NCBI GenBank assembly: GCA_963699875.1
Contig: CAVOVN010000011.1
Span: forward strand, 6,744 to 70,743
DNA: 64,000 nucleotides
DNA from: an uncultured Acidobacteriaceae bacterium
GTDB lineage: Bacteria > Acidobacteriota > Terriglobia > Terriglobales > Acidobacteriaceae
Direction of reading: 5' to 3'
Shown here: piece after piece, positions 48,715-64,000 of the stretch
How positions within the stretch are numbered: position 1 is the stretch's first letter
Layout: each line of letters begins with the position of its first letter
Notes under the pieces: generated by a model
What the model was told of the DNA's origin: nothing
Databases searched by the model: none
What the model saw: the letters and a program-made list of their open reading frames with translations, nothing else
Translations under genes and position numbers: made by a program

Positions 48715-48779
48715 CTCCTACACAGAGTTGGTAGGAGTTATCAGCCCTTGCGCGGGCGGTTAAGGCGAACTCCATCGCC
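48715..48779 (-). promoter_or_regulatory. fluoride riboswitch (crcB RNA motif) with SD-sequestering platform
   Basis: The minus strand reads GGCGAUGGAGUUCGCCUUAACCGCCCGCGCAAGGGCUGAUAACUCCUAC, then CAACUCUGU, then GUAGGAG (containing the SD). TATAAT lies at 48793-48788. Confidence 0.85.
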
Positions 48780-48888
48780 TGACAACATTATATAAAGTTC
48801 GTTCCCCAGAAGCAGTGCCTTCCGTTGCCAACCCGAAAACGCCCCGACCATTTCTATGACATCCGGATTTAAACGCTGGTTTTTCAGC

Positions 48889-49000
48889 AGCTTACGCTAT
48901 CACCTCGAACTTACCTCCATATCACCTCGAGAGTATTGATCGCCCGGGCGAAGCGGCGCATTGTGCCCTCACGAGAGCGGAACTAAGCAACGCGTCGCCT
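48889..49000 (+). repeat. conserved leader box, copy 1 (putative promoter plus 5-prime leader)
   Basis: Aligns with 53297-53409. The last 47 nt differ at a single position. Contains two TATCACCTC units 21 nt apart. Confidence 0.75.
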
Positions 49001-49044
49001 TGGTCGCTCTCGAATCCAGGGACCTGGCGAACCAGGAGGCCACC

Positions 49045-49407: not shown

Positions 49408-50213
49408 TGAGGTTCATCATGCATAGTTCTAGTTCCTACTCTCTGGGTGTAACCCGTGAACAAAAATCAGCCGCCTCCAGATTTGCGCTGATGGTTTCTC
49501 TGTTCGCACTTCTTTTTATCGGGGTGCTCGCGAACGCACAATGTGTCCCCAACTGTCTCTTCTACGGCGGCGACTTCGAGCTTGCCAACAACAACGCTAA
49601 CGCCCTGCCAAACGAAAATGACGCCATCGTAGGCGCCGTTCCGTATGGCGCTGCCACCTTCCAGAACTTTGTTATCCCGGCCGGGCATACCTGGAATATC
49701 ACCAGTCTGTTCACCAACAACATCACCTCCCTTACGAACCCCCAGAGTGCCTATTTCGAGATTCGCACCGGCGTCTCAGAAGGCAATGGTGGAACGGTGA
49801 TCGCTTCCGGCTATGGCAATGCCGGGGCCGGCACTTTCACCTGGACGCCGACTGGCCGCAATGGTTTTGGCTTAGACGAGTACATGGCCCACGTGACCGG
49901 ACTCAACATCAACCTGGGCGCCGGCATGTACTGGGAGTCGGTGGTTCCGCAGGCACCCAATGATGCAGGCCGTTCTTTCAACACCAATACATTCACCAGG
50001 CCGGGTGGTTTTGGAACGCAGATCAGCGATCAGCAGTACTTCGACTCCCCATTTTTCGGTAGCAGCTTTACCAATGCTGACAATCTGGGCTCTTTCCCAA
50101 CTTTCTCCAGCGGTATTGATGGAGTTGACGCACCTGAGCCTTCGACTTTGCTCATGCTCGGCTCCGGGGTGGTCAGTGTAGCCGGTCTGTTGCGGAGGAA
50201 GTTGGTCGGATAG
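49407..50213 (+). CDS. PEP-CTERM sorting domain protein
   Basis: C-terminus APEPSTLLMLGSGVVSVAGLLRRKLVG. Signal peptide after MRFIMHSSSS.... Confidence 0.85.
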   Translation: MRFIMHSSSSYSLGVTREQKSAASRFALMVSLFALLFIGVLANAQCVPNCLFYGGDFELANNNANALPNENDAIVGAVPYGAATFQNFVIPAGHTWNITSLFTNNITSLTNPQSAYFEIRTGVSEGNGGTVIASGYGNAGAGTFTWTPTGRNGFGLDEYMAHVTGLNINLGAGMYWESVVPQAPNDAGRSFNTNTFTRPGGFGTQISDQQYFDSPFFGSSFTNADNLGSFPTFSSGIDGVDAPEPSTLLMLGSGVVSVAGLLRRKLVG

Positions 50214-50242
50214 CTACGCAGACTCTTCTCTGTGCAGGTGAC

Positions 50243-50267
50243 GAGCAGCTTCGCGGAGTAGCTGCTC
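50243..50267 (+). terminator. hairpin after PEP-CTERM gene
   Basis: GAGCAGCT-TCGCGGAGT-AGCTGCTC followed by CTTATATA. Confidence 0.4.
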
Positions 50268-50315
50268 CTTATATAAGCTCAACGACGCCGCAACATAACT
50301 GAGAAAGGAAATCAT

Positions 50316-50954
50316 ATGAAAACCAGCTTCGCAAAATTATCCGCTTTATCTATCTTGTTCCTGGCCTTTTCCGTAGTTTCATCCTTTGCCGCAAACATTA
50401 CTATCTATGGCACCGGCGAAACCAACAGCGGAACCGGGCAGGCCGATCCAAACTATCAACTAATTAGCGCGCCGCCCGGAGTCGCCCTCGGCCCAGCATA
50501 CACGGCTTCTTATGTTGCGTGGCACACTCCACCCCCGGGCTTGTACTGGGACAACCCTGTCAACCCATTTAATTACGCTCCGATTGGCGACTACGACTAT
50601 CGCACTACCTTTGACTTAAGCGGCTTCAATGCGGCCAGCGCCGTGCTGGCAGGACAAACGGGGGTGGATGACACCGGCACGATTTGGCTCAACGGTGTGA
50701 TGGTAGCAAGTATGGGAAGTCTCTCTTCCTTTGCTCCATTCACCATCACCGATGGCCTGAATGGGGCGCACTTCTTGTCCGGTCTTAACACGTTGGACTT
50801 CAAGGTCAATAACGACCCGCATTACGTCAATACGCCGACCGGTCTCATGGTAGACATCAGCGGCACGGCTGATGCCGTACCCGAGCCTGCCAGCCTGACG
50901 CTTCTGGGATCCGGAATTGTTGGATTGGCGGAGCTATTGCGGCGGCGGGCCTGA
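50316..50954 (+). CDS. PEP-CTERM sorting domain protein
   Basis: C-terminus VPEPASLTLLGSGIVGLAELLRRRA. Signal peptide present. GAAAGGA upstream. Confidence 0.85.
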   Translation: MKTSFAKLSALSILFLAFSVVSSFAANITIYGTGETNSGTGQADPNYQLISAPPGVALGPAYTASYVAWHTPPPGLYWDNPVNPFNYAPIGDYDYRTTFDLSGFNAASAVLAGQTGVDDTGTIWLNGVMVASMGSLSSFAPFTITDGLNGAHFLSGLNTLDFKVNNDPHYVNTPTGLMVDISGTADAVPEPASLTLLGSGIVGLAELLRRRA

Positions 50955-51025
50955 CAGCGAACATACTGTGGAGTCAATCTTCGCGTCATAACCATTTACG
51001 AAACACCTAATTATGGGGAAATCAT

Positions 51026-52390
51026 ATGAAAGCAATCTCTGTAAAACCGTTAGCTTCACCAATTGTGTTACTGGCGCTCGCCAGCACGCTCATCTTTTCT
51101 ATATTCGGACTACAGCAAACTGCGGTAGCCCAGCCTGATCCCACTTCGCAGTTCCGCAACAATGCCGAACACACCGGCGAAGTCGTCGAGTCGTTTCTGC
51201 ACCTTTCCAACATCTCCGATCTGGCTATCCAGTGGAAGGGAATAACAACCAGTTCGATTGTTGCATCGGCGACCGTTGTTATCCAGCCGATCGATCATGG
51301 TCACCACCATGTAGCCTATGTAACTTCCTACGATGGATTTCTCTATGCCTTTAACGCTGATAATTGCTACTTCGGGCACGAAAGCGGTGGAGGACAGGAA
51401 TGCCCTGTCCTGTGGCAATTTGCTATCGGCAACAATGCGTTCAGTTCGCCCGCTGTAGCGACCGAGCTCATCGGTGGTACGCCGACTTCGGTTGCATACG
51501 TCGCCGGCGGTGGCGGCGACCTTTACGCGATCAATGCGGTTACCGGAACGCAGATCTGGACAACTCACATCGGTAATCCAGGCCCGTACACCTCACCAGT
51601 TGTTGCCAATGGAGTGGTTTACATCCTTTCCACAGGTCTGGGCGAGCTGCTTGCTTTCGATGCGGTGGCTGGTGGCCCTTCTCTGTGGGCGGCAGTCACG
51701 AAAGGGTGGGCCTCTCCGACAATCGCTAAGGGAATTGTCTATGTGGGCGATGATTCTGGCACTATTCGCGCGTTCAGTGCCAACGGATGCGCGTCCCCCC
51801 CGTGTCAGCCGCTCGGAAGCATCAGCGGCTTCGGCGCATTCAACTCGACGGCCGCGGTCAGCAATGGACGAGTCTTCGTGGGGTCGGATGACTACAATCT
51901 TTACGCCTTTGAGGCTTCCGACGCATCTTGCAGTAGCATCTGCGGTCCACTATGGTCCGCCAACCTGGGTAGCCCCGTGCTTTCTTCACCTGCCGTCGCC
52001 AATGGTGTTGTCTATGTAATCGGTGGCAGCTTCACCAGTAACGGCAAGCTCTATGCCTTCGACGCAAACTGTTCGGGACCGGCATGCGGTACACCGCTTT
52101 GGACCGGGGACATCCACGGTTATTACTCAGCCTCTTCACCGGTTGTAGCGAACGGTGTTGTGTATGTCGATTCCGATGACGGTTACACCTATGCGTTCGA
52201 CGTGACCGGCTGTGGCGGCTCAACCACGTGTAGTCCCCTTGTGCGCGTGAACACGCACAACGGTGCGAGCGTGGAGTCGTCACCAGCCGTAGTCGATGGG
52301 GTTGTCTATGTCGGATCCACCGATGGAACCCTGTACATCCTCGGAACCTGCGGTTATGTGTGCCGCTATGACAACCAGAGTCTCTACTGA
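51026..52390 (+). CDS. secreted PQQ-like beta-propeller repeat protein
   Basis: Repeated units of the type SSPAVANGVVYV.S.DG.LYAFDA. Signal peptide present. Confidence 0.8.
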   Translation: MKAISVKPLASPIVLLALASTLIFSIFGLQQTAVAQPDPTSQFRNNAEHTGEVVESFLHLSNISDLAIQWKGITTSSIVASATVVIQPIDHGHHHVAYVTSYDGFLYAFNADNCYFGHESGGGQECPVLWQFAIGNNAFSSPAVATELIGGTPTSVAYVAGGGGDLYAINAVTGTQIWTTHIGNPGPYTSPVVANGVVYILSTGLGELLAFDAVAGGPSLWAAVTKGWASPTIAKGIVYVGDDSGTIRAFSANGCASPPCQPLGSISGFGAFNSTAAVSNGRVFVGSDDYNLYAFEASDASCSSICGPLWSANLGSPVLSSPAVANGVVYVIGGSFTSNGKLYAFDANCSGPACGTPLWTGDIHGYYSASSPVVANGVVYVDSDDGYTYAFDVTGCGGSTTCSPLVRVNTHNGASVESSPAVVDGVVYVGSTDGTLYILGTCGYVCRYDNQSLY

Positions 52391-52630
52391 GCTGGTCTGC
52401 CTGTAAACAACTCACGGGATGCCGCTATTCACGGGTATCCCGCCCTGAGTTAGAGGTAATCACCATGGCTTGCCGACCATGATTGGCTAATGGAAAGAAC
52501 AGTCGTTTACCTCCAAACGATCTACGCTGATGTACCCAGGTGCTCGCGGCAGTGTGGAGAATGGACTAGTTGATCAGACGTGCATAAGGGTACGCCTCCG
52601 CCGCATACAATGGTCAGCAAGGAAGAAGTC

Positions 52631-53047
52631 ATGCCCCTTCAGCCGGAAGTGCAGTCGTTGCTTTCACGTCCTAACTTCGCCCACCTCTCCACCTTGATGC
52701 CCGACGGCTCGCCGAACACCACGCCGGTTTGGATCGGGCTCGAGGGCGACAACATTGTTATCTGTACCAGCGAGGGCAGCCTGAAGGCACGCAACCTGCG
52801 CCACGATCCGCGCCTGTCCCTCTCCGTCGTGGATTTCGACAATCCTTACGAAGAGGTACAGATTCGGGGACGCGTGGTTGAGGTTCGTGACGACTCGAAG
52901 CTCGACACCATGGACAAGATCTCGCAGAAATATATTGGTGCTCCATTCCCAATGCGTGACTTCAAGCAGATCGCCATGATCATCGAAGTCGAGAAGGCGC
53001 GCTACACTAAGCTCCCCTTCCAGCACACCCCGCCGGGACGTACTTAG
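52631..53047 (+). CDS. pyridoxamine 5-prime-phosphate oxidase family (PPOX class, possibly F420-dependent) protein
   Basis: FAHLSTLMPDGSPNTTPVW...VICTSEGSLKARNLRHDPRLSLSV split-barrel pattern. AAGGAAG upstream of the ATG at 52631. Confidence 0.8.
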   Translation: MPLQPEVQSLLSRPNFAHLSTLMPDGSPNTTPVWIGLEGDNIVICTSEGSLKARNLRHDPRLSLSVVDFDNPYEEVQIRGRVVEVRDDSKLDTMDKISQKYIGAPFPMRDFKQIAMIIEVEKARYTKLPFQHTPPGRT

Positions 53048-53296
53048 CCATTGCCAACTAGCTGTTAGCAACTGCAAAGAAGCAGCCAGGTGATGAGACA
53101 TGGGGCCGTGCGTCCGATCGTGCGTCCCATCCATTCCCTCTAGAGATTCCGGAGTCTCCCATGTGGAATCGGTGGTTCAGACTCCTCAGCTTTGATCCGC
53201 GCCATCCGCGTGATCCGCGCTTCTTCTCCCTCTTCTTCCCCGATCCCAGGCGCCCGTTTGATGATGATGTTTGCCCTCACGCCCATTCTCTTCAAT

Positions 53297-53409
53297 AGCT
53301 TGCGCTATCACCTCCAACTTATCTCCATATCACCTCGCAAGTATTGAACGCCGAACCAGACGCGGCGCATTGTGCCCTCACGAGAGCGGAACTGAGCAAC
53401 GCGTCGCCT
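53297..53409 (+). repeat. conserved leader box, copy 2
   Basis: See copy 1. It is followed by a 140-nt non-conserved spacer and then the small ORF. Confidence 0.75.
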
Positions 53410-53549
53410 CAGCCGCCCTCGCAGGACCCAAACGCCGGAGGCGGGATAACCGTTGATTCCTTCAGCACCCAGCCTCCGGTCGCCAAGGTTCTCCAACGAG
53501 GCGGCACATGCGGTCGAAATCCACGGATTGCCAACGAAAGGAGACCATC

Positions 53550-53825
53550 ATGAAAACGCGAGACACCCAGGGGGCATTCATCTCTCTTATCTGGACGCTC
53601 ATAGCGAAGGTTAAGCAAATCACCACCGCTTCCAGCGTCCCCATTCATCCCCACGCGGACATGGCGGCCGATCTTCTTTTGCAGCCCGTGGTTTCCCGCA
53701 GTACGCAGCGACGGCTGGCTGAAGATGCCAGCCTCAACCACCAGGTCTATCGCTTCAGCAGTGTCAATAACGCGACTTCCCTCTGCCGGCTGGATCGGGG
53801 CGCGCTGAACTTGCCTGTGCGGTAA
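53550..53825 (+). CDS. small ORF of the duplicated leader module, copy 2 (coding status uncertain)
   Basis: AAAGGAG 7 nt upstream of the ATG. MKTRDTQGAFISLIWTLIAKVKQIT... is conserved with copy 1 for about 45 codons. Confidence 0.3.
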   Translation: MKTRDTQGAFISLIWTLIAKVKQITTASSVPIHPHADMAADLLLQPVVSRSTQRRLAEDASLNHQVYRFSSVNNATSLCRLDRGALNLPVR

Positions 53826-53856
53826 GCGATACCAACTCGGAAAAATTGGAGCTTAT

Positions 53857-55287
53857 ATGAAAACGCACTTCTTCAGGACTCAGAGACTAAGCTGCGGGAC
53901 TTTTTTCAGCATTCACCGAGAGGTCTTCACCCTAGTCTTCCTGCTGGTTGTTCTCGTCCTGGTCCTTGGTGGACCAGCGAGTGCCTCCCCGCGACACAAT
54001 TTGAAGCGCGATTCCGCAGGCCAAGCGGGCAGGTCGCAATTCTTCTACTCGCTGGGCCAGGGCTATTTCAACTATCCGTCATCGGATGACAACTGGCTCG
54101 GTGGCACCGGCAACTGGACGAATGCCGCGCTATGGAGCGCCGGCGTGCCGGGCAGCAGCAGCGATGTCTTCATCGGCTCCGGCGGCGACGACCGCTCCAT
54201 CTACACTCCGAGCAACGGAACCATCAACTCGCTGACTGTCGGTGCAGCGACCGGAACTGCCGAGTTCCAGGAGATGACCGGCGCTGGACTGGTTGTTAGC
54301 GGCACACTTAACAACCAGGTGAACGGCACCGTTATCAACGCCGGAACGCTGTCGGTTGCCAGCCTGGCGAATCTTGGCACTCTGAACAACCAGGGCACTC
54401 TCACCCTCACCAACCAGCCAAACGGCATCACGCAGATCGCGCCGGATTCGCAGTTCGACAATATCGGCACTGTCCTGGCGGGCAGCAACAATGCCTTCGC
54501 TCAACTGCAGGACATCGAAGGGCACTTCCTGCAGCACAACGGGCAGACGACCAACATCACTCCCGGCAGCGGGACGCTTACCATCGGCGCGCCGGGCTTC
54601 TTTGAGATGTCCCGCTGGAACACCATGACCTCGGTACAAGTCAATGGAGACCTGAATAACCAGGGCCGGATCAGGACCGATGGAGGAGCGCTCACTGTAA
54701 CCGGCGCCTTCAACAATGCCGGTTCGTTGCTATGGTATGGCGACGGTTTCGCCAATGTTAATCGCCTTACAGCCACGCATGGTCTGGTGAATACCGGGAG
54801 TATTGGGCTTGCCTTTGGCAGCGTCCTCAGCACTCCCTACTTCAGCAATAGCAACTACCTGAGCATTGATCACGCCTCTGCTTTTCTGGTCGGCACGGGT
54901 ACTGCGGGAGCTGGCTATCAGCAGTTTGCCGATGGTCGGCTGACCGAAAACCTCGGTGATGCCTTCCACTTCGGGGTCATGTTCGCCGACAGCTTCGCAC
55001 TGGACGGCACCCTCGACATCGAGCTGCAAAACGGCTTCACTCCGCAGGCAGGCTCGTCCTTCATCATCGGATATGCCAAGGCAGGCGGCTTGAGCGGCCA
55101 GTTCGCGAACATCAGCAATCAGTTCTTCAACAATGGGACGGAAGAGTGGGTGGTGAACTATGACAACCCCCATGGCTATCTGGAGCTGGATGCAATCGAC
55201 ACTAACGCGCCGGAGCCGGGCACTCTCCTGCTCTTAGGTACCTCAATGGCTGGCGTGGGCGGTCTACTGCGGCGTCGGCTCGGCTGA
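53857..55287 (+). CDS. PEP-CTERM sorting domain protein with autotransporter-like GTLNN repeat region
   Basis: C-terminus APEPGTLLLLGTSMAGVGGLLRRRLG. Internal repeats (GTLNNQ...). Signal/TM segment present. Confidence 0.85.
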   Translation: MKTHFFRTQRLSCGTFFSIHREVFTLVFLLVVLVLVLGGPASASPRHNLKRDSAGQAGRSQFFYSLGQGYFNYPSSDDNWLGGTGNWTNAALWSAGVPGSSSDVFIGSGGDDRSIYTPSNGTINSLTVGAATGTAEFQEMTGAGLVVSGTLNNQVNGTVINAGTLSVASLANLGTLNNQGTLTLTNQPNGITQIAPDSQFDNIGTVLAGSNNAFAQLQDIEGHFLQHNGQTTNITPGSGTLTIGAPGFFEMSRWNTMTSVQVNGDLNNQGRIRTDGGALTVTGAFNNAGSLLWYGDGFANVNRLTATHGLVNTGSIGLAFGSVLSTPYFSNSNYLSIDHASAFLVGTGTAGAGYQQFADGRLTENLGDAFHFGVMFADSFALDGTLDIELQNGFTPQAGSSFIIGYAKAGGLSGQFANISNQFFNNGTEEWVVNYDNPHGYLELDAIDTNAPEPGTLLLLGTSMAGVGGLLRRRLG

Positions 55288-55340
55288 GCTGTCTCTCACG
55301 CGATTCTGTGCGGTGAGCGAAGTTGCTGCAACTTTCAATA

Positions 55341-55365
55341 GGCGATGGCCAGCTCAACCATCGCC
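55341..55365 (+). promoter_or_regulatory. conserved 5-prime-UTR hairpin, copy 2
   Basis: Identical 25-mer GGCGATGGCCAGCTCAACCATCGCC. Ends 28 nt before the ATG at 55394. Confidence 0.5.
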
Positions 55366-55393
55366 GATAAACCAGCATTAGAGGAGGTCATTA

Positions 55394-57559
55394 ATGAAAT
55401 CGCAGATTCCTAATCGTCACACCTGCTCTCTTTTCGTCCGTTGTCACGGGTTTGACCACACATTACGTGTCTCGCTTGCTGTTGTCTTCGCTTTGCTTTC
55501 CATGGTGGGTAGTATGTTTGGTCAGGAGAGTCCCCGCGTATTAGCGGGCAGCACCCCAGGTGTAGTTGCTCAAGGCAAGGATATTGGCCCGGAAGACCCT
55601 GAAAAACAAATTGAGATTACCGTCGTCCTGCAGCGCCGCAACGAGCCTGGGTTTCAGCAGGTTCTGCAGCAGCTCTACACTCCAGGCTCGCCTATCTTTC
55701 ACCAATGGCCGACAATGGCACAATACGTCGCAAACTTTGCGCCCAGCCCTGCCGATGTGAAAATCGTCAGTGACTTCCTTTATTCACGTGGCTTGAGCGT
55801 TTCCCGCAGCGACGACTTCAACGCTTATATTGTGGCTGAGGGCACGGTCGCTGACGTCCAGAATGCCTTTCACGTTCAGATCAACCAGTTCGACCTTGAT
55901 GGCAAAATATATCGCGCGAATGTCGGCGAGCTCGTGCTGGACGGTACCATTTCCGCACTCGTCTCAACGGTGCGGGGACTCGACAACATTGGGTTCGAAT
56001 CGCACGTTCGACAACCCGTCAGCCCGTCAACCGGCCTGCCGGCGGCGCCCATTCCGATCGATGAGTTGACTCCCGGCGGGTTTATCAACTCGTGTTTTGG
56101 AGTCTCCGAAGAGGACACTTTCCACACGCACAGCTACTGGCCTTTCTTTAATTACACGGGTCAGAAATACGATGCGAACGCCTGGAATCTCTCCGGCGGA
56201 ACACGATGTGCATATACGCCGCATCAGGTGCAGGACGGGTACGGTCTTACTGGCGTATACAGTGCCGGCAACGACGCACACTATCAGGGAATCGGCATCG
56301 TGGTGGCCTACGGCTCGCCGACGATCATTGCGGATGAAAGCTATTTTGCCAGCTACTACGGACTTACTCTTCCTAGGATGGATATTCACTTTTCAGGCAA
56401 TCCTCCTCTGAATGTAGATTGGGCGCTCGAAACGACGCTGGATGTGGAGTATGCCAGTGCCATGGCGCCGGGCGCGCTTATCGACCTGTGGATCGCCTCT
56501 GATCCGTCGTCCCTCCCCACAACGCTGCTCGACGCTGTTCAGCACCACTGCGACGATGCGCCATGCGATAACCAGATCTCTAGCAGTTGGGGTAGTCCCG
56601 AAAGCTTGCATAGCGCGAGCGATCTGAATTTCGTGGACAGTGTGGCGCAGCAAGCCAGCCTCCTTGGCATCTCGCTGCAATTCAGCTCGGGCGACGATGG
56701 AGATTTCCAGAAGGCAACCGGCAAGGTCGACGTCAGCACACCGGCAAGCGATCCATGGGTAACCGCCGTCGGCGGAACCTCGCTGGTAATGAATAGCGAC
56801 GACAGCATCTTATTCCAGACGGGTTGGGGCACGAACCTCACTGAAATCGCCAACCAGTCATTCGCAGACGATCCGCCGGTGCATTTTGGCTTTCGGGCAG
56901 GTGCAGGCGGTGGAACGAGCCGCGTCTTCATAGGAAAGCTATGGCAGCAAGGATGTTTCGGGGTAACCGTATCTTGCGGGAAGCCCGGGGTACATCGCAC
57001 CGTACCGGATATTGCTCTACTAGCCGATCCCTATACCGGCGTGCAAGTCATACACACGCAAGGCTACGACAGCCACAATAGTAAATTCGTGATGGATGTT
57101 ACCGGCGGCACAAGTCTTGCTACGCCCATGTTTAGCGGCGTGTGGGCCCTGGCCAACGAATACTATGCCGATAAGATCGTGAATCAGTATGGAGCTTCGC
57201 TCGGCGTGGCAAGTGTCTACGGCTATTGGGACCAGAAATACTACCCAGCGGCCGTAAAAGACATCAGCGAGAGCAGCTTTTCAAATAGAGAAGCCTATAA
57301 CGTCACGGGCTGCGAGCATCGGTTGTTCAAGAAAGGCTGTCATCCAAACTATTCGCCGAACTACTTGATCGATGCGACCGCTCCCTTCATTAGCGCGATT
57401 ATGGCAGAAGAGCCTAATGCACCAAGAAATTGGTATGTACTAGGCTTTGGTACCGATTCATCGTTGCATACGGGCGCTGGGTGGGATCCTGTGACGGGAG
57501 TAGGTGTTCCCAACGGAATGCAATACCTAACAGGGATTGCGAAGTATTATCATCACTAA
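55394..57559 (+). CDS. S53 family (sedolisin/kumamolisin-like) serine peptidase with pro-kumamolisin activation domain
   Basis: N-terminal propeptide pattern (ITVVLQRRN...FHQWPTMAQYVANFAPSPADV...LSVS). Catalytic GGTSLATPMFSGVWAL. AGAGGAGG upstream. Confidence 0.9.
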   Translation: MKSQIPNRHTCSLFVRCHGFDHTLRVSLAVVFALLSMVGSMFGQESPRVLAGSTPGVVAQGKDIGPEDPEKQIEITVVLQRRNEPGFQQVLQQLYTPGSPIFHQWPTMAQYVANFAPSPADVKIVSDFLYSRGLSVSRSDDFNAYIVAEGTVADVQNAFHVQINQFDLDGKIYRANVGELVLDGTISALVSTVRGLDNIGFESHVRQPVSPSTGLPAAPIPIDELTPGGFINSCFGVSEEDTFHTHSYWPFFNYTGQKYDANAWNLSGGTRCAYTPHQVQDGYGLTGVYSAGNDAHYQGIGIVVAYGSPTIIADESYFASYYGLTLPRMDIHFSGNPPLNVDWALETTLDVEYASAMAPGALIDLWIASDPSSLPTTLLDAVQHHCDDAPCDNQISSSWGSPESLHSASDLNFVDSVAQQASLLGISLQFSSGDDGDFQKATGKVDVSTPASDPWVTAVGGTSLVMNSDDSILFQTGWGTNLTEIANQSFADDPPVHFGFRAGAGGGTSRVFIGKLWQQGCFGVTVSCGKPGVHRTVPDIALLADPYTGVQVIHTQGYDSHNSKFVMDVTGGTSLATPMFSGVWALANEYYADKIVNQYGASLGVASVYGYWDQKYYPAAVKDISESSFSNREAYNVTGCEHRLFKKGCHPNYSPNYLIDATAPFISAIMAEEPNAPRNWYVLGFGTDSSLHTGAGWDPVTGVGVPNGMQYLTGIAKYYHH

Positions 57560-57967
57560 ATACCAACCGGGTGCACGAACAGCACTCCGGTTCTCCCCGC
57601 CCAGCCGCAGTCTGGTTGGGCGGGGGGCCATGGGCCTCTCACCTCGAGCGTCGCGAGAACCTCAATACCTGGGCACGAGGGCTGTCAAACCTCCATCACC
57701 ATTGATATTGATCCAGGCGGGGCTTTGATTGTTCGACGAGCATCGGTACAACCGGGGCCGCCGAGGCTTCCAGCCAATCACCCATTCGGGCCTTCCGCCC
57801 CGGTACGGCCCTACTTTTCCTCCGAATCCACAGCCTTCCACATCAATGCACCGAAAAGGGGCGTTGAAGCCGCCCGCAGACGGGTCTATTGTCCGAGAGT
57901 CGGGACGAGTCACACCCCATTAACTTCGCGGACGATAACCGCCGTGATGCCCCTAACGGGTGTAAAA

Positions 57968-58019
57968 TAACAATATGTGGTAGTAGCCTCTTGACATCCA
58001 CAATATGCGGGAGTAATGT
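57968..58019 (+). promoter_or_regulatory. putative nrdJ promoter overlapped by two NrdR-box-like sites
   Basis: TTGACA (57991-57996), 17-nt spacer, TAATGT (58014-58019). ACAATATGTGG is centred near 57975 and CACAATATGCGG near 58005, 30 bp apart. Each matches about 10/16 of acaCwAtATaTwGtgt. Confidence 0.45.
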
Positions 58020-60278
58020 TCGCTTCCACAGGGTATTCCGGAGCCTTCGTTTGGTTCTTCTCCTCCTGAGCGAAAGCCGCCCGGAACCAGAGGTGAATCA
58101 GGGACTTAGGTGGCTGGGCTCGATTCCTCCCGAGCACGGCCAGGGCCAAGGGCCAGATCGGTTGAATTAGCAGGTAATCGTGCCGGCCTCATGCAGGCCG
58201 GCGGGCCGAAAGCCGAGTCGAATCCTAGAAATAAGGAGAGAAATAAGGTCGGCGTTCGGTGTTCCTTTCCAAGTCAGCTAACCAACGTTGCCGGGAGTGG
58301 GGTGACTCCCGGCGACTTTCCCTTACAGTCCGGCAACTCCGCAGGAGCGAGATCGTGCCCTGCGGAACTGGATGAGCACTCCGCACGTGTTCCTCCAGCA
58401 GTCGCGGTGACACCGGACCTAACGCACCGAGTGGGGGCTGCCTTCCCGGCCAGAAACCGGCCGACGGAGCAGCCCCCACCGCTTTGCGCGACGGGTAGTG
58501 CGGGCCTTTACGTGGCGTGGCACTGAGCAGGGTAGTGCGATAGACCTTTACGAGTCGCCGTTACGGAGACGATAGAGCTGACCTTTAGGTCCGCGTCGGG
58601 CAAGTGCGAAACAGTTCGAAGTCCCGTAGGGACGACAGATTAAAGCCCCGTCCTTCAGGACTGGGTAATCGACGACAGACTGTACCGCAATCATATCGAT
58701 CAGGAGTTTCCCATGGCCGACGTAACCACAACGACTAAAACCACGAGCGCTTCCACCACGGCAACTACGAAGAAAGCGCCCGGCCTCACCTTCAAACGTT
58801 TCTTCACCACCGCCGGCGTCTCGCCCTATGACGAGCTCGAGTGGGAGCTGCGCCTGGCCCAGATCACCGACGCCAAGGGCGGCGTGATCTTCGAGCAGAA
58901 GGACGTCGAGACTCCCAAGGACTGGTCGATGACGGCGACCAACATTGTCGCCTCGAAATATCTGCACGGCACGCTCGATACTCCCGAGCGCGAAACCGGC
59001 GTGCGCCAGCTCGTGTCGCGCGTAGCCGAAACCATTCGCGACTGGGGTGTCAACGGCGGATACTTCCGCACTCCCGACGACGCCGCCATCTTCCACGACG
59101 AGCTCGCCCACCTGCTGTTGCAGCAGAAGGCAGCGTTCAATTCGCCGGTATGGTTCAACGTGGGCTGCGATCGCATCGAGCCCAACTCCGACGCGCAGAA
59201 CTGGCACTGGAACGCCGCGGAGCAGAAGGTCGAATTCAGCGCCGTCGGTTACACCAAGCCGCAGTGCTCGGCCTGCTTCATCAACTCGGTCAACGATTCG
59301 CTCGACTCCATCCTGACGCTGGCCAAGACCGAAGGCATGCTCTTCAAGTGGGGATCGGGTACCGGCACCAACCTGTCGCCGCTGCGCTCGTCCACCGAGT
59401 CGCTCTCCGGCGGAGGCACCGCCTCAGGTCCGCTGAGCTTCATGAAAGGTTTCGACGCCTTCGCCGGCGTCATCAAGTCCGGAGGCAAGACCCGCCGCGC
59501 CGCCAAGATGGTCATCCTCAACGTCGACCATCCCGACGTCGTCGACTTCATCGAGTGCAAGCAGAAGGAAGAAGCCAAGGCCTGGGCGCTGATCGAGCAC
59601 GGCTACGACGGCTCGGGTCCCGACTCGGAAGCCTACTCGTCCATCTTCTTCCAGAACGCCAACAACTCGGTGCGCGTGACCGACGACTTCATGTACGAAG
59701 TTGTCCGCGACGGCGAGTTCTAGACCAAGTCGGTGAAGGACGGCCGCCCGGTGCACACCTTCAAGGCGCGCGACCTGCTGCGCAAGATTTCCGACGCAAC
59801 CTGGCACTGCGGCGATCCCGGAATGCAGTACGACACCACGACCAATCGCTGGCACACTTCGAAGAACACGGCGCGCATCAACGCGTCGAATCCCTGCAGC
59901 GAGTACATGTTCCTCGACGACTCGGCCTGCAACCTGGCGTCGCTCAACCTGCTCAAGTTCGCGCCCAACGGAACCTTCGACGTCGAAGCTTATCGCCACG
60001 CCTGCGCCGTCGTCATCACCGCGCAGGAGATCCTGGTCGACAACAGCGGCTATCCGACCGAAGCCATCTCGCGCAACTCGCACGACTATCGTCCGCTGGG
60101 ACTCGGCTACGCCAACCTGGGCGCGCTGCTCATGGCCGCGGGCCTGCCCTACGACTCCGATGCCGGACGCGACTACGCTGCCTGCGTCACCGCCATCATG
60201 TGCGGCGAAGCGTACTTGCAGTCGTCGAAGATCGCCGAACTCTGCCAGCCGCTGGCGCCCGCAACAGACAACTACGGC

Positions 60279-60319
60279 TGTCATCCTGAGCGAGGCGCGG
60301 AGCGACGAGTCGAAGGACC
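60279..60319 (+). repeat. GTCATCCTGAGCG... repeat copy inserted in frame in nrdJ
   Basis: GTCATCCTGAGCGAGGCGCGGAGCGACGAGTCGAAGGACCC, translated as [15 protein letters not shown] within the NrdJ frame. Confidence 0.8.
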
Positions 60320-61075
60320 CCTGACTACCCGCGACACGTTCTCCGGCGCCGCCTGTCCCGGCTGGTACGTCAATCGAGAGCCCTTCCTCGACGTCATCCG
60401 CATGCACCGCGCTTCGGTCAACAACATCAACAAGCACGAACGTTCCCGCGTCGCTCCTCGAAGCCAGCAAGGCTACCTGGGACGAAGCCCTCAAGCACGG
60501 CGAGCGCTTCGGATATCGCAACGCGCAGGTCACGGTGCTCGCGCCCACCGGCACCATCGGCTTCATGATGGACTGCGACACCACCGGCATCGAGCCTGAC
60601 CTGGCGCTGGTGAAGTACAAGAAGCTGGTTGGCGGCGGCATGATCAAGATCGTGAACAACACCGTCCCGGCCGCGCTCTTCAAGCTGGGATACACCAACG
60701 ACCAGACCAACGCCATCGTCAGCTACATCGACGCCACCGGAACCATCGAAGGCGCGCCCGCCATCAAGGACGAGCACCTCGCCGTCTTCGACTGCTCCTT
60801 CAAGCCGTCGAAGGGCACGCGCACCATTCACTACACCGGACACCTGCGCATGATGGCCGCCACCCAGCCGTTCATCTCGGGAGCGATCTCGAAGACCATC
60901 AACATGCCCGAGAACGCGACGGTCGAAGAAATTTCCGAAGCCTACATCCAGGCCTGGAAGCTCGGCCTGAAGGCGGTCGCCATCTATCGCGACGGATCGA
61001 AGAAGGCGCAGCCGCTCAGCTCCATGGGCTCCGCCACCGCCAAGTCGCAAAAAGGCGACGCACAATATTCGTCTG

Positions 61076-61121
61076 TGGGTGCCCCATCCTTGTCCGGGCT
61101 TCCCGGACAGGGTGGGATTCA
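61076..61121 (+). repeat. palindromic element inserted in frame in nrdJ
   Basis: GTGGGTGCCCCATCCTTGTCCGGGCTTCCCGGACAGGGTGGGATTC. The arms CCATCCTTGTCCGGG and CCCGGACAGGGTGGG are complementary. Confidence 0.6.
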
Positions 61122-61625
61122 GGAACCCGAAGACGAGCAGGCCGCGCCGCCCAAGGCCAACCGTCATCGCATGCCCGAGGAGCGGCTCTCCATCACGCAC
61201 AAGTTCAGCGTCGGCGGCCACGAAGGCTATCTCACCGTCGGCCTCTACAAAGACGGCATGCCCGGCGAGATCTTCATCACCATGGCCAAGGAAGGCTCGA
61301 CCGTCAGCGGCCTGATGGACAGCTTCGCCTGCGCCGTCTCCATCGGATTGCAGCACGGCGTGCCGCTCAAGCTGCTGTGCGAGAAGTTCGCCCACACCCG
61401 CTTCGAGCCCAGCGGCTGGAGCGGCAACCAGGACATCGGCTTCGCCAAGTCGATCATGGATTACATCTTCCGCTGGCTGCAGCTGCGCTTCCTCACCGGA
61501 CAGCAGCAGGCGCTCTTCGACGGCCTGCGTCCCAAGTACTTCGGAGCTCCGCCGGTCGGCGCTCCCGAAGAGGGCGGCCAGAAATCGTTCGGCGACTTCG
61601 TAGATCACGCCCACTCTTCCGATGT

Positions 61626-61664
61626 GTCATCCCGAGCGGAGCGCGAGCGGAGCCGAGGGACCTG
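61626..61664 (+). repeat. GTCATCC(C/T)GAGCG... repeat copy inserted in frame in nrdJ
   Basis: GTCATCCCGAGCGGAGCGCGAGCGGAGCCGAGGGACCTG, translated as SSRAERERSRGT just before the zinc-ribbon tail. Confidence 0.8.
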
Positions 61665-61834
61665 CAGTTTCTTCGCCGCGGCGCACATCCACGCTGCCGA
61701 CGCACTGAAAGAGCTGATCGACATGGGCGACGCCCCAACCTGCTCAACCTGCGGCGCAATCATGACGCGGAACGGAAGCTGCTACCGCTGCATGAGCTGC
61801 GGGAGCACGAGTGGGTGCAGCTGAATTGCAAAAG

Positions 61835-61860
61835 GGGGCTGCTCACATTGGAGCAGCCCC
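61835..61860 (+). terminator. hairpin after nrdJ
   Basis: GGGGCTGCTC-ACATTG-GAGCAGCCCC, starting 11 nt after the TGA. No T-run follows. Confidence 0.5.
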
Positions 61861-61968
61861 AACAGGAGGGGAGGGTCATCCCCCCGGATTTCAACATCTT
61901 CGCTGCGTATAATCGCAATGTAGTCCTATCATAGTTACCGGTATTTCTTCTTGCGTTGCTAACCGCTC

Positions 61969-62298
61969 ATGCTGCTCGATGAATCAAAGCTTTTGTTGTG
62001 TTTCCATTCTGGCGAATACGATCAGCTTCGTGTTGCCCTTCAATACTGGAGCATCTCCGCTGATGGCAAATCGTGGCTGAATGCGACACAGCCGTTGGCC
62101 GATGAGTTGGGTGTTCGCGTTGATCAACTGGCCGGGGTTCTGGCAGGAATAGCGCAAGGTTACGATCTGCGAACGCGGTGCGATGACTGCGGAATGCCCA
62201 GAGTTCTGACCAGCCGCACGTCTTTCCAGCAATCTTGGGAGGCTACATTTATCTGTTCCGAGTGCACATCCACTCGCACTCGTGAGCAGAGATTATAA
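61969..62298 (+). CDS. hypothetical protein with CxxC...CxxC zinc-ribbon-like motif
   Basis: 109 aa ORF in a low-GC region (CDDCG...CSEC). In the same frame as the next ORF, separated by one TAA. Confidence 0.4.
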   Translation: MLLDESKLLLCFHSGEYDQLRVALQYWSISADGKSWLNATQPLADELGVRVDQLAGVLAGIAQGYDLRTRCDDCGMPRVLTSRTSFQQSWEATFICSECTSTRTREQRL

Positions 62299-62310
62299 CT
62301 CCAGGCGAAA

Positions 62311-62691
62311 ATGGAAGAGCAAAATGCGTGGGCAACAGGCAGCATTCAGAACGAATGTGCCTCGAATCGGCCGTTTAACTACAGCACAATCGACTACTTC
62401 GATGCGGTGCTGGTGTACGCCATCATGCTCTCATCTGATTCTGCCTGTTCTAATGGGCAGATCGGAAGCATGTCGGAGTTGCGGCTCTGTCTGACCGATG
62501 AGCCCCTTCTCGATATCACTCGACGGCACTTTCGCCGGAGGATAATTCAGTTCTCACCTAGTACCCCTTTGGAGGCGATTGCTCCCAGGCAAGACAACAC
62601 CGGAAGGCTTTTCGTATTATCCAATGAGGAAATTGTGGCTGAGCAGACGACCTTGATGGTGATCTTTTCCTACAGTTTTTGGGGGACTTAG
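62311..62691 (+). CDS. hypothetical protein
   Basis: 126 aa ORF, in frame with the previous ORF. No family recognised. Confidence 0.35.
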   Translation: MEEQNAWATGSIQNECASNRPFNYSTIDYFDAVLVYAIMLSSDSACSNGQIGSMSELRLCLTDEPLLDITRRHFRRRIIQFSPSTPLEAIAPRQDNTGRLFVLSNEEIVAEQTTLMVIFSYSFWGT

Positions 62692-62799
62692 GTGAAATTA
62701 TGACACACAGGACTTGAATACGGATTACGAAGAAGCCATATCCGATCTATGGTGGATGCTGGCTGTCAATCTGAAAACATCGATATCTGAATGAACAGG

Positions 62800-63642
62800 T
62801 CAACTCCTACCAGCTACCATTTCCTGGCGCAGTAACCGCCTGCAGTCCTTACGTATTGATAAGTTTCGATCCCTCAGGTGCGCAACCTGATTTGGACGGT
62901 TGTGAAGAATGCGGCGGCCCTTTCCACGAAGCGGGAATACACCTCTAGACATGCGCTGAAACACCATCCCCGGTGACCTGATCGGGTCTGTGATCGTGCG
63001 ATCGCCGAGAAGTGGGAAGTTAACCCTCCCCTGAACTGGTCCGAAGATGAGCCGATGCTCACTACTCTTTAATAGCGTACTCCGGACCGGTGTGACCGGA
63101 TTCTCCCGTTGTAATGGAGTAAACACAGTGGAAATGAGGAATAAACCCCTGGCCAGTGCGCTCGTCCTATTCTTCCATATCGGCGTCACTGTCCTCTGAT
63201 CCTCGGGCTCGGGTGCATTGGGCTTAATGTCGCAGTAATGAAGTTTGGCGCGGTATAATACCATTCCACAAAGGTTTGCTTGCGGTTCGAAAATGTCCTC
63301 AAACGCCAAAACCAAATTGCCCAAGTCTTCCGCGGTAACCCAAGTCTTACCCGCAAGCTGGAAGATCCAATCATTCATTTCGGCATTGGTATGAATCTCA
63401 TCCAACAGTATGTAATAGTGCTGTATATCTAAGGACCAGCGGTCACCTGCCCCGTTCAGTTTCCATCTACCCCAATAGTCTCCATGTCGTGGAGACACAT
63501 GATTTTCTAGTTGATCAAGGGCGTCCTGTAGTGACGTGCCAGCCTGTCCTTCGTCTCCTCGCATATACCTCACTCTGTCCATTTGATAGTGATCTCCGTT
63601 GATCTCGTTGGTATAGTGCCGGTTCTCCAAACCCACTAACAC
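62800..63642 (-). CDS. hypothetical protein
   Basis: 280 aa open frame in a region of about 40-50% GC, where long random ORFs are unlikely. The N-terminal half is protein-like; the C-terminal half is Arg-rich and uncertain. Confidence 0.4.
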   Translation of the reverse strand: MLVGLENRHYTNEINGDHYQMDRVRYMRGDEGQAGTSLQDALDQLENHVSPRHGDYWGRWKLNGAGDRWSLDIQHYYILLDEIHTNAEMNDWIFQLAGKTWVTAEDLGNLVLAFEDIFEPQANLCGMVLYRAKLHYCDIKPNAPEPEDQRTVTPIWKNRTSALARGLFLISTVFTPLQRENPVTPVRSTLLKSSEHRLIFGPVQGRVNFPLLGDRTITDPIRSPGMVFQRMSRGVFPLRGKGRRILHNRPNQVAHLRDRNLSIRKDCRRLLRQEMVAGRS

Positions 63643-63731
63643 CAGTTTTTAGACGCTACCGTTCCGCCGGGTGCTGAGGCGAGCGTTCATTCCTTTTGTT
63701 GCAGCTAAGCTGTTGCTACTTTCCACCTTCA

Positions 63732-63974
63732 TCAATCCAGTCGTTCACGGCTTTGATATTGCTTTGCCAATAAAAATCTTCCGAGTATTCGGCTAAAATT
63801 CTTTTCCGATATCGCTCGATTAAAATGCTTGCGGGCGTGCTCATAGCCCGGTATGTGGAGACGTTTGATCATCTCAATGACGTCATTCTGCGACAACCCA
63901 CCCTCGACCAACATCGAAAGCAATCCCATGAGGCCATCTTTGGTAAGAAAATGTGTAAGGTTCAAATCTGACAC
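63732..63974 (-). CDS. hypothetical small protein
   Basis: 80 aa ORF in a low-GC region. No family recognised. Confidence 0.3.
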   Translation of the reverse strand: MSDLNLTHFLTKDGLMGLLSMLVEGGLSQNDVIEMIKRLHIPGYEHARKHFNRAISEKNFSRILGRFLLAKQYQSRERLD

Positions 63975-64000
63975 CGGTCATCTTGTCACGGGCAAATTCG

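Follow-up and report, generated by a model that had tools for sequence, protein, structure and literature searches.

How does the gene of an essential enzyme come to hold short dispersed repeats at three places inside its coding sequence, and is it still a functional gene? The question is raised by nrdJ in a 64-kb stretch of acidobacterial DNA, which was analysed as a whole and is called the window below. The original prediction was that three palindromic repeat copies had inserted in frame into nrdJ, in the manner of Rickettsia palindromic elements (RPEs), and are tolerated as extra peptide loops. We compared the gene and its surroundings with about 80 orthologous loci and with 120 intact homologues.

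The nrdJ gene and its three variable sites

The identification of the gene as nrdJ is borne out by its domains, PF08471 Ribonuc_red_2_N (3e-19), PF02867 Ribonuc_red_lgC (4e-136) and PF12637 TSCPD (2.5e-10), and by the best PDB match of its product, 7b9p (E = 1e-180). Another match is 1xje (E = 3e-57). The presence of Ribonuc_red_2_N and of the barrel domain of ribonucleotide reductases (RNRs), together with homology to solved class II enzymes, places the product in class II. In the window, the gene is given as three open reading frames (58713-59723, 59733-60599 and 60535-61824). An intact orthologue in the related locus L081 encodes 1039 amino acids, and the DNA of another relative, L027, is 93% identical to the window. 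Codons that flank the repeat sites are under strong purifying selection (pN/pS ~0.02); for the nrdJ of the window, the values are 0.019 against L081 and 0.018 against L027.

All three predicted segments are found in the sequence of nrdJ, at the coordinates first given (Table 1). Translation and alignment confirm that each lies between conserved NrdJ blocks that share the same local frame. Site 1 is a barrel-domain loop flanked by 'YLQSSKIAEL' and 'CPGWYVNREPF'. Site 2 is the linker that joins the barrel domain and the TSCPD domain, and site 3 is the stretch that links the TSCPD domain to the C-terminal Cys-rich tail. This tail re-reduces the active site. Solved class II RNRs of other organisms have no counterpart to the three segments, with weak or partial coverage of the sites: the alignment to 7b9p is weak across site 1 and its chain stops before sites 2 and 3, while the best-matching stretch of the Thermotoga enzyme ends at query residue 504, ahead of site 1. 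An AlphaFold2 model (P0001, 120-sequence alignment) was unusable, with a mean pLDDT of 44 and a pTM of 0.34, and we draw no structural claim from it.

Table 1. Positions of nrdJ, its segments and lesions, and related repeats (window coordinates unless a locus is named)
Feature	Positions	Strand	Basis or remarks
Family-A inverted doublet, intergenic	32484-32593	.	33-nt arms, 97% complementary; folding z = -9.6
Family-A inverted doublet, intergenic, just upstream of yidC	37181-37309	.	Folding z = -6.5
Single family-A unit	39703-39770	+	Begins 15 nt past the stop of a jag/R3H gene
Single short family-A unit (TGTCATTCTGAGCGAAGCGAAGAACCTG), intergenic	47786-47815	+	Orthologous copy at L081 2577
nrdJ, class II (B12-dependent) ribonucleotide reductase	58713-61824	+	Pfam, PDB, ORF list, three-frame translation
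In-frame TAG, private to the window	59721-59723	+	TCG or TCC (Ser) in all five close relatives
Three private extra bases bracketing segment 1	60269-60327 (about 60269, 60323, 60327; approximate)	+	Six-way DNA alignment
Segment 1, one family-A unit (GGCTGTCATCCTGAGCG...GTCGAAGGACCCCT), variable site 1	60276-60322	+	Match to intergenic copy and relatives
Extra C, +1 frameshift (AAG[C]ACGAAC)	60435	+	Missing in all five close relatives
Segment 2, family-B putative REP hairpin (GTGGGTG CCCATCCTTGTCCGGG CTT CCCGGACAGGGTGGG), variable site 2	61075-61116	+	Folding, relatives
Segment 3, one family-A unit, C-variant (TGTCATCCCGAGCG...GAGGGACCTGC), variable site 3	61625-61665	+	Motif match
Three private extra C's within or just after segment 3	61644-61686 (about 61644, 61676, 61686)	+	Relatives L081 and L085
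Y1_Tnp (RAYT) gene in L081	19637-20329 of L081		Family-B copies on both sides, both strands

Repeat families A and B

Segments 1 and 3 belong to family A (TGTCATCCYGAGCG...GGAYC), of which each is a single unit; this family is separate from that of segment 2 and non-palindromic. Its motif GTCATCCYGAGCG has 8 copies in the 64-kb window where 0.38 are expected (~20-fold enrichment), a count that 0 of 100 shuffles reach, and all 8 family-A copies in the window read TGTCAT. The unit, TGTCATCC, forms inverted doublets in intergenic DNA, and segments 1 and 3 correspond to single arms of such doublets. One doublet separates a LolA-like gene from dnaN, the two genes facing it with their 3′ ends. The left arm of the other, upstream of yidC, is the closest relative of segment 1: over 47 nt, segment 1 is 94% identical to the intergenic copy at 37179-37225, 23 kb away. 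The segment 1 element also occurs at site 1 of L027, L083 and L084, and is missing from many orthologues. Segment 3 is common to the window, L081 and L085.

Single family-A units fold no better than shuffled sequences (z = +1.8, +2.3, +0.17 and +0.36), and segments 1 and 3, which have the first two of these values, fold worse than their own shuffles. The doublets have inverted arms (33 nt, 97% complementary), as MITEs do, but they do not qualify as MITEs, given that no direct duplication flanks either of them. Family A partly resembles the REPs with a CGTC tag, which are defined by CGTC (or TGTC/CCTC) and a stem beginning with AT, the stem being 8-9 bp and the loop 4-5 nt (PMC3733652). Family-A units start with TGTC, an accepted variant, followed by AT; they form inverted dimers; and, as with the CGTC-tagged REPs, no transposase was found adjoining them. 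However, their stem has at most 4-5 bp and their loop at least 11 nt, which falls short of the stem in this definition. The 64-kb window has no Y1_Tnp homologue, and no Y1_Tnp gene in the compared loci is flanked by family A. A full-text search of the literature for the repeat GTCATCCTGAGCG and the peptides VILSEAKDL, CHPERSEG and SSRAKRG returned one irrelevant primer only.

Segment 2 is a member of family B, and is identical in L081 and L085. Its 15-nt arms (14 Watson-Crick pairs and one G-T) enclose a 3-nt loop, and its folding energy of -14.2 kcal/mol (z = -4.1) is equalled by 0 of 200 shuffles. The description of all three segments as palindromes thus holds for segment 2, and fails for segments 1 and 3. 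Similarly, the predicted presence of the same families in intergenic DNA of the window is true of family A, but not of family B: segment 2 has no second copy within the 64 kb, where there is one perfect box only.

The other family-B copies are on the contigs of relatives, just past the point where the window ends, and all of those found are within ~5 kb of a RAYT gene. In the closest relatives, this gene is located 0.4-3.1 kb downstream of nrdJ, and the hairpins that flank it are those inside nrdJ. Both boxes of family B, 5′ and 3′, are found on either side of the RAYT gene and in both orientations in L081, L027 and L085, and L027 has 9 copies. The flanking is seen in these relatives and not in the window, which ends ~0.9 kb short of the syntenic RAYT gene. 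Family-B copies also occur inside the RAYT gene itself in the closest relatives. The RAYT protein scores 94.6 bits, above the cut-off of 80, against the NCBIfam model NF047646 ('REP-associated tyrosine transposase'), matches PDB 4er8 and is a homologue of E. coli TnpA-REP.

REPs are short (20-40 nt) imperfect palindromes able to form a stem-loop, and the hairpin of segment 2 agrees with this. The GTAG tetranucleotide that marks one end of REPs precedes 2 of the 12 family-B copies in L081, and the nrdJ copy begins with GTGG. Because family B flanks the RAYT gene downstream of nrdJ in the closest relatives, we classify segment 2, from its sequence and context, as a predicted REP, which was probably mobilised by the enzyme that this RAYT gene encodes.

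A RAYT gene is found beside nrdJ (within a few kb) in 10 of 85 loci, and these genes represent two transposase classes. In loci with the other class, the repeats that flank the RAYT gene differ from those inside nrdJ of the same locus. A general rule relating the two sets of repeats was therefore rejected: only L081 and L085 fit, while L027 and six loci with the other RAYT class do not. More speculatively, several REP/REPIN-type families might land preferentially and repeatedly in the nrdJ of Terriglobia through its linkage to RAYT genes, with RAYTs acting mainly in cis over a few kb, and inserts at domain boundaries might have been co-opted, for example as mRNA structures or as flexible tethers for the Cys-rich tail. 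We regard this scenario as rather unlikely. The nrdJ-RAYT neighbourhood is a natural setting in which to ask whether the action of RAYTs is local.

Other types of repeat besides families A and B are a tandem CTGACAAC type and GLQ-type hairpins. Acido-Lenti-1 was considered as an nrdJ-specific 5′ leader element, and was ruled out in this role, being multi-copy and scattered in other loci.

Turnover at the sites and the state of the gene

In-frame insertion implies a multiple-of-three length bias, and the corresponding intervals of nrdJ orthologues have it. Interval lengths range from 12 to 339 nt across the sites, and 232 of the 235 locus-site combinations have a length divisible by 3. Among 81 loci (80 orthologues and the window), these are 81/81 at site 1, 78/79 at site 2 and 73/75 at site 3. 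The alignment of the 120 intact homologues has 572 gap-rich columns, which fall in the N-terminus, around residue 417 and in the three sites. Peptides derived from repeats are present in 71 of these proteins at site 1, 56 at site 2 and 103 at site 3. Elsewhere in the 120 proteins there is one stray match, if a very loose VILSE-type pattern is excepted. Site 2 encodes GAPSLS..GQGG in 27/120 homologues, and 60/120 have a family-A copy in the SSR frame at site 3, whose consensus reads LSSR....EG.A.

The linkers are variable and of low complexity in all orthologues. Repeat-free orthologues exist at all three sites, and gap-rich columns concentrate there, which supports the view that the segments are lineage-specific and lie in variable linkers. 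Turnover is visible even among relatives that are 90-96% identical in DNA. At site 1, family A is present in the window, L027, L083 and L084, whereas L081 has family B and L085 a tandem repeat. At site 2, the window, L081 and L085 have family B, while L027, L083 and L084 have family A, joined at the same junction. Overall, the three sites are the places where indels concentrate in NrdJ, and at least five repeat families have been gained, swapped and lost there, with the frame always kept.

Across orthologues, the same repeat units differ in site, number and frame, and they are present in both orientations. None of the nrdJ copies has a frame or orientation with a stop. For example, the T variant, which would give TGA, is absent from every copy in the SSR frame. 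Repeat DNA remains near the consensus of its family even where the synonymous sites of the orthologues have much diverged.

We think it quite likely that these patterns result from the insertion of dispersed repeats and a frame filter in NrdJ linkers, with the lesions described below being errors. In this Terriglobia lineage, NrdJ would have three unconstrained stretches, namely the barrel loop, the barrel-TSCPD linker and the linker between TSCPD and the Cys-rich tail. Short interspersed repeats would repeatedly land there, replace one another and be lost. A copy would survive only if it keeps the frame and introduces no stop, and would then be translated as extra linker peptide. We infer translation and tolerance from the continuity of the reading frame and from the selection on the gene; transposition is the probable route of arrival, and the inserts are presumably neutral. 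The original view of tolerated mobile-element insertions is therefore right in that the segments are repeat-derived, lineage-specific and set in a gene under purifying selection, but they are not three clean insertions, and they come from two unrelated families.

The frame was also described as unbroken. This is correct locally, at the segments, but elsewhere the gene has an in-frame TAG and a +1 shift (Table 1). Seven single-base insertions, all private to the window, lie within the 3.1 kb of nrdJ. Six of the seven cluster at repeat sites, and each set sums to +3. With those around segment 1, its frame becomes CHPER instead of VILSE, and those at segment 3 alter the frame within the segment and just after it; L081 and L085 lack the latter and read SSRAERSGAEGPAVSSRGAIHA. 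The peptides first given for segments 1 and 3 are not borne out, since they depend on these six insertions; relatives read VILSE...SKDPY and SSRAERSGAEGPAV, respectively.

Such lesions are not confined to nrdJ. In the flanking 11.6 kb, the window differs from L081 by 8 single-base indels, in each of which it is the window that has the additional base; 5 of ~16 shared genes are broken in the window only, and yidC is also split. In 2783 aligned columns, the window has 4 private substitutions and at least 4 private small insertions, whereas the relatives show 30-83 substitutions and at most one small indel. An exact look-up of the 336-aa N-terminal nrdJ fragment in public assemblies gave no record. 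Outside nrdJ, a Logan contig of run ERR11523645 matches window positions 54840-57941 with 99.94% identity. Given that the five close relatives lack the lesions and that other essential genes in the window are also frameshifted, we take the TAG, the frameshift and the odd frames within segments 1 and 3 to be, most likely, consensus or assembly errors rather than biology. The clustered +3 insertions could be real compensated frameshifts in unconstrained loops. Programmed frameshifting and stop read-through were ruled out: the lesions are private to the window, relatives have a sense codon and an intact frame, and unrelated genes are broken as well. The case is a warning that consensus errors in metagenome assemblies accumulate in repeat-rich coding regions and can resemble biology.

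The stop, the frameshift and seven private insertions in 3.1 kb might instead indicate that nrdJ is a decaying pseudogene here, in which the repeats, too, reflect relaxed selection. We consider this unlikely. The low pN/pS against two relatives and the mere 4 private substitutions oppose it, and the same repeat inserts are present in many intact, full-length orthologues. Moreover, comparable lesions in yidC, in a gene with a UvrC_M domain and in other genes of the window, together with the fact that the window has the longer version at every single-base indel relative to L081, point to an assembly artefact and not to gene-specific decay.

It is quite improbable that the repeats are kept for a function, for example because they form hairpins or pause sites in the mRNA at domain boundaries, supply regulatory segments to the protein, or act as signals for recombination or replication. 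The position of sites 2 and 3 at domain boundaries would suit such a role, as would the frequency and consensus of the repeat at site 3, the closeness of the repeat DNA to its consensus and the RAYT genes that adjoin nrdJ in some loci. However, every site has repeat-free versions, while family, copy number, frame and orientation vary freely. Family-A units lack a stable fold, and the same element is swapped for unrelated ones among very close relatives. Ongoing re-insertion or gene conversion explains the closeness to consensus.

Finally, the low complexity and variability of the linkers, and the lack of a second segment 2 copy in the window, could suggest an ancestral linker that merely resembles repeats, or intergenic copies derived from the gene, but this is highly improbable in view of the 47-nt match to intergenic DNA 23 kb off, the enrichment of family A in the window, the units that change site, number, orientation and frame among orthologues, the family-B hairpins clustered around the RAYT gene and the repeat-free linkers.

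Comparison with known systems

The repeats in nrdJ can be compared with several known systems. One is that of REPINs and RAYTs, associated with the work of Bertels and Rainey in 2011 and of Nunvar and colleagues in 2010, in which REPINs are reportedly extragenic. Family B resembles it in having ~40-nt hairpins that cluster about one RAYT gene (NF047646) and point both ways, and the inverted doublets of family A fold into long hairpins, as REPINs do. The present copies differ in that they lie inside coding sequence, including the RAYT gene itself. Other differences are that the GTAG tag accompanies few of the L081 family-B copies (2/12) and that no RAYT was found for family A.

Intragenic REPs are another such system. 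GTAG- and CGTC-tagged palindromic repeats of 20-40 nt are normally extragenic, but singles, dimers or clusters of them occur in frame in genes of known proteins, many of these for DNA replication or repair, where they add 10-80 residues (Di Nocera, De Gregorio & Rocco 2013, PMC3733652). The same survey connects GTAG REPs with RAYT genes and notes that Acidobacteria encode a distinct group of tyrosine transposases. The nrdJ segments are likewise short dispersed repeats that are in frame and that would add extra peptide. However, neither Acidobacteria nor a ribonucleotide reductase figures among the intragenic REPs of that survey. In addition, three hot spots of a single gene are here occupied by several unrelated families, with turnover between closely related genomes, and family A is without the defining stem-loop.

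According to the accounts of Ogata et al. (2000, Science 290:347) in PMC3733652 and PMC10969869, RPEs are selfish repeats found in frame in functional, conserved genes, translated and tolerated, probably at the protein surface. RPE-1 type elements are ~100-150 bp and occur in obligate intracellular alpha-proteobacteria, while the shorter RPE-4 and RPE-6 have been equated with CGTC REPs (PMC3733652). The predicted likeness to RPEs is apt as regards in-frame insertion in a conserved, functional gene, for which the interval lengths (232/235 multiples of 3), the 120 intact homologues and the pN/pS of ~0.02 speak. The nrdJ units are not members of the RPE family of 100-150-bp Rickettsia palindromes: they are ~40 nt long, belong to a free-living soil phylum and appear to be unrelated in sequence, and only one of the three is a palindrome.

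REP-type and other small dispersed repeats are usually seen as extragenic, and cases in essential genes are worth recording. In this free-living soil phylum, small repeats are a routine source of variation in the length and sequence of linkers in an essential enzyme. Annotators and curators of protein families should expect repeat-derived peptides like VILSE..SKDP, LSSRAERSGVEGPA, GAPSLSAGQGG and TDNRQLTTDN in acidobacterial proteins, and the nrdJ repeat sites could serve as fine-scale strain markers. The nrdJ case clearly adds a new member to a kind of insertion already described in Rickettsia and other bacteria.

Repeat segments in nrdJ and elsewhere in the window

The nrdJ product of this acidobacterium (class Terriglobia) has the Ribonuc_red_2_N, RNR (ribonucleotide reductase) barrel and TSCPD domains in Pfam, and ends in a cysteine-rich CxxC...CxxC tail. 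Among solved structures, 7b9p is the closest (E = 1e-180), and the Thermotoga enzyme 1xje comes second. Outside three variable sites, pN/pS is 0.018 in comparison with the close relative L027 and 0.019 with another, L081, where 65 differences are synonymous and 4 non-synonymous; the gene is under strong purifying selection there. An Acido-Lenti-1 match (Rfam RF01687, 42.7 bits) precedes the start codon by 48 nt. We rejected it as an nrdJ leader: the motif is multi-copy and scattered across other acidobacterial loci (four copies in L005, one in L003), and therefore resembles another small dispersed repeat.

The original prediction placed three palindromic repeats inside nrdJ, and all three segments are located where it put them. 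However, only segment 2 is a true hairpin (CCCATCCTTGTCCGGG / CCCGGACAGGGTGGG, -14.2 kcal/mol, z = -4.1), while segments 1 and 3 are less stable when folded than shuffled versions of themselves (z = +1.8 and +2.3).

Segments 1 and 3 belong to one repeat, family A. The window has 8 occurrences of GTCATCCYGAGCG, where 0.38 would be expected; no shuffle attains 8. A T precedes each copy, giving TGTCAT. Segment 1 is 94% identical over 47 nt to intergenic positions 37179-37225. Family A forms inverted doublets in intergenic DNA, where the pair folds into a long hairpin; each nrdJ copy thus corresponds to one arm. The expectation that intergenic DNA of the window contains these families too is true only for these two segments, because a search of the 64 kb found no second copy of segment 2.

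Family-A repeats also occur at gene boundaries in the chromosomal origin neighbourhood (32686-39689). A LolA-like ORF continues through a tandem-repeat arm and the entire family-A doublet (from about residue 229 to its end); the repeats may encode a C-terminal extension here, or the frame may be in error again. Elsewhere, a fluoride riboswitch (RF01734, 60.5 bits) is found upstream of crcB and a DUF190 gene. A duplicated block of about 270 nt, consisting of three segments with 80-90% identity, precedes two paralogous small ORFs and is also present in L081.

Coordinates of features in the window and, where a locus is named, in orthologous nrdJ loci
Feature	Coordinates	Strand	Remarks
nrdJ	58713-61824	+	class II B12-dependent RNR; Pfam and PDB matches
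Segment 1	60276-60322		family A
Segment 2	61075-61116		family B
Segment 3	61625-61665		family A
Family-A inverted doublet	32484-32593		intergenic long hairpin, z = -9.6
Family-A inverted doublet	37181-37309		intergenic long hairpin, z = -6.5
Family-A single units	39703, 47786		intergenic
CTGACAGCTGA / CAGCTGTCAG-type units	12127-12277, 24529-24737, 28525-28655, 31160-31276, 32445-32468 and 32651-32688
LolA-like ORF	31759-32661	+
dnaN	32686-33852	-	origin neighbourhood
dnaA	34202-35833	-	origin neighbourhood
yidC	37352-39141	+	origin neighbourhood; three ORFs
jag/R3H	39138-39689	+	origin neighbourhood
UvrC_M-domain gene	46551-47749		broken by insertions
DUF190 gene	48003-48329
crcB	48334-48708
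Fluoride riboswitch	48725-48788	-
Duplicated block	48883-49173, 53291-53678
89-aa ORF	49045-49285		broken by insertions
Acido-Lenti-1 match	58620-58665	-
402-aa gene	61969-63118		broken by insertions
210-aa gene	63719-63999		broken by insertions
Single-base insertions (examples)	45834, 47197, 47252, 47779, 49171, 53362, 58187, 58353		relative to L081
RAYT gene	L081 19637-20329; L085 7047-7706; L027 8357-9046		downstream of nrdJ
Second Y1 transposase class	L040 6475-7093; L042 7681-8297; L059 7565-8366		just downstream of nrdJ
nrdJ frame breaks, MFD series	L027 5302-5446 and 5828-6002; L002 5305-5445; L038 5830-5932

Family B and RAYT genes

The JGI metagenome contig L081, which matches window positions 45207-64000 at 95-99.6% identity, carries an intact nrdJ (1039 aa), with a Y1 transposase gene about 3.1 kb downstream. 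Hairpins with the 5′ box (GTGGGTGCCCCATYC) and 3′ box (GGGTGGG) of segment 2 occur on each flank of this gene in both orientations, and two more family-B copies lie in frame within it. The transposase scores 94.6 bits with the NCBIfam equivalog model for REP-associated tyrosine transposases (RAYTs), above its cut-off of 80, and also matches 4er8, the E. coli TnpA-REP. The close relatives L027 (9 copies) and L085 have the same arrangement. Segment 2 is therefore a short palindromic repeat (REP) of a REP/RAYT system, and family B has both the structure and the RAYT association of a REP. The window stops about 0.9 kb before the syntenic RAYT gene.

The three RAYT genes contain in-frame copies of their own REP family (e.g., HPTLSQKMGKNGAP), which interrupt the match to NCBIfam and PDB homologues at about residues 88-140. 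Edaphobacter/Terracidiphilus-like genomes have a Y1 transposase of a second class, with hairpins of its own (GGCACGGCTTCAGCCGTGCC and GGGCTTTAGCCCC) on its flanks. Y1_Tnp-like ORFs of the two classes occur within a few kb of nrdJ in 10 of 85 loci, which is far above chance placement of a low-copy gene, although the loci are phylogenetically non-independent. RAYT proximity is thus suggested to contribute to the family-B load of nrdJ; the RAYT-flanking repeats are the same as the intragenic ones only in L081 and L085.

Turnover at three sites

We compared 80 orthologous loci from GTDB genomes, four close-relative contigs and 120 intact homologous proteins (79-95% identity). Repeats are present in some orthologues and absent from others at every site, the repeat-free version being 21 aa at site 1 ("LCPSLEPATPLTHTVEITGGA") and about 35 aa at sites 2 and 3. 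Anchor-to-anchor intervals span 12-180, 84-339 and 15-336 nt at sites 1, 2 and 3, and their length is divisible by 3 in 232 of 235 cases. Of the 572 gap-rich columns in the 120-protein alignment, about 218, 41 and 196 fall at sites 1, 2 and 3, and the others in the N-terminal tail and a small spot near residue 417. The 7b9p alignment is weak across site 1, and the chain, ending in "...DGSKxxQPLxS", stops 19 residues short of segment 2. Sites 2 and 3 therefore belong to linkers around the TSCPD domain which the solved chain lacks.

At least five repeat families fill the sites: family A (forward VILSE..SKDPY, LSSRAERSGVEGPAV and rarely CHPER..; reverse SAQDDK), family B and relatives (GAPSLSAGQGG, GAPSKPGVGLGG, GAPSSSPSFGDRVG), a tandem type (TDNRQLTTDN), GLQ-type hairpins (GRAGLQA...GLQPG) and GGGCGCCCTCGCCC-type hairpins (VERAPSPA). 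Outside the sites these signatures are almost never found (one stray match), if the very loose VILSE-type pattern is left aside. Tandem CTGACAGCTGA / CAGCTGTCAG-type units in the window, often inverted pairs, appear to be the DNA source of the TDNRQLTTDN / ADSRQLTADS peptides that many NrdJ homologues have at sites 1 and 3. One such pair brackets the family-A doublet at 32484-32593.

In a six-way alignment of the window with L081, L085, L027, L083 and L084 (89-96% DNA identity), site 1 holds family A in the window, L027, L083 and L084, two family-B boxes plus a related hairpin in L081, and a tandem repeat in L085. Site 2 holds the family-B hairpin in the window, L081 and L085, and, in the other three, family A with the same "TCGTCTGT" junction. 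At site 3, one family-A copy is common to the window, L081 and L085, which has a second; L027 and L084 have a diverged GTCATCAC variant and L083 lacks an intact copy. Hence, the segments are lineage-specific as predicted, but they did not arrive by three single events: the sites are hot spots where repeats continue to be gained, replaced and lost.

Frame, probable assembly errors and known repeats

The prediction that the repeats leave the frame intact agrees with the interval lengths at the three sites, but the window's own gene is not a single ORF. It is split into three ORFs (58713-59723, 59733-60599 and 60535-61824) because of an in-frame TAG (59721-59723) and an extra C at 60435 (+1 shift). 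These two lesions, three extra bases bracketing segment 1 and three surplus C's within and after segment 3 are found in none of the five close relatives, which have TCG or TCC (Ser) in place of TAG. Removing the six bases around the segments restores the relatives' frames: VILSE...SKDPY in segment 1 (shared with L027, L083, L084, P0004, P0009 and P0010) and SSRAERSGAEGPAVSSRGAIHA in segment 3 (shared with P0001, P0002, P0003, P0005 and P0007).

Private to the window are only 4 substitutions but 4 small insertions over 2783 cleanly aligned columns of nrdJ; the counts in the relatives are 30-83 substitutions and 0-1 small indels. This ratio fits consensus errors and not divergence, although the insertions may instead be real compensated frameshifts in unconstrained loops. 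The peptides originally predicted for segment 1 and for segment 3 (SSRAERERSRGT in the latter) are therefore treated as probably artefactual, although the elements themselves are real. In 11.6 kb flanking nrdJ, the window differs from L081 by 8 single-base indels, each a base added in the window, which suggests that the source assembly contains consensus errors. Such insertions are scattered through 45207-64000, and 5 of about 16 genes common to the window and L081 are frame-broken in the window only. The division of yidC into three ORFs belongs to the same pattern. Other long-read MAG loci (MFD series) have nrdJ frame breaks inside repeat-bearing sites, which fits the repeats being error-prone spots for assembly consensus.

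Frame and orientation use is strongly biased across the 120 related proteins, whose occurrences are not independent events: 118 are in the forward SSR frame, 68 in the forward VILSE frame, 3 in the forward CHPER frame, 11 in reverse orientation and none in stop-containing frames. The T variant, which creates TGA, is avoided in all four SSR-frame copies examined as DNA. Flanking codons are under selection. We infer that copies arrive by transposition, RAYT-mediated for family B, or possibly by gene conversion, with other copies in the genome as donors. To survive, a copy would have to be in frame, free of stops and located in an unconstrained linker, where it would be translated and nearly neutral.

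Overall, the original observation is partly confirmed and its interpretation partly supported. The interest of the case lies in multi-family hot spots with fast turnover, and it illustrates how assembly errors build up in repeat-bearing regions. In-frame repeats in functional genes were already described as Rickettsia palindromic elements (PMC3733652). Intragenic GTAG/CGTC REPs are known from Opitutus terrae, Thauera, Rickettsia and others, many in replication/repair genes (Di Nocera et al. 2013, PMC3733652). That survey notes an Acidobacteria-specific tyrosine transposase group and lists neither acidobacterial intragenic repeats nor RNR; no mention of the nrdJ repeat was found in the literature searched. 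Family A resembles the CGTC REPs in its TGTC-AT tag and inverted dimers, but fails their stem-loop criterion. The nrdJ case is thus a new, well-documented example of an already known in-frame repeat phenomenon.
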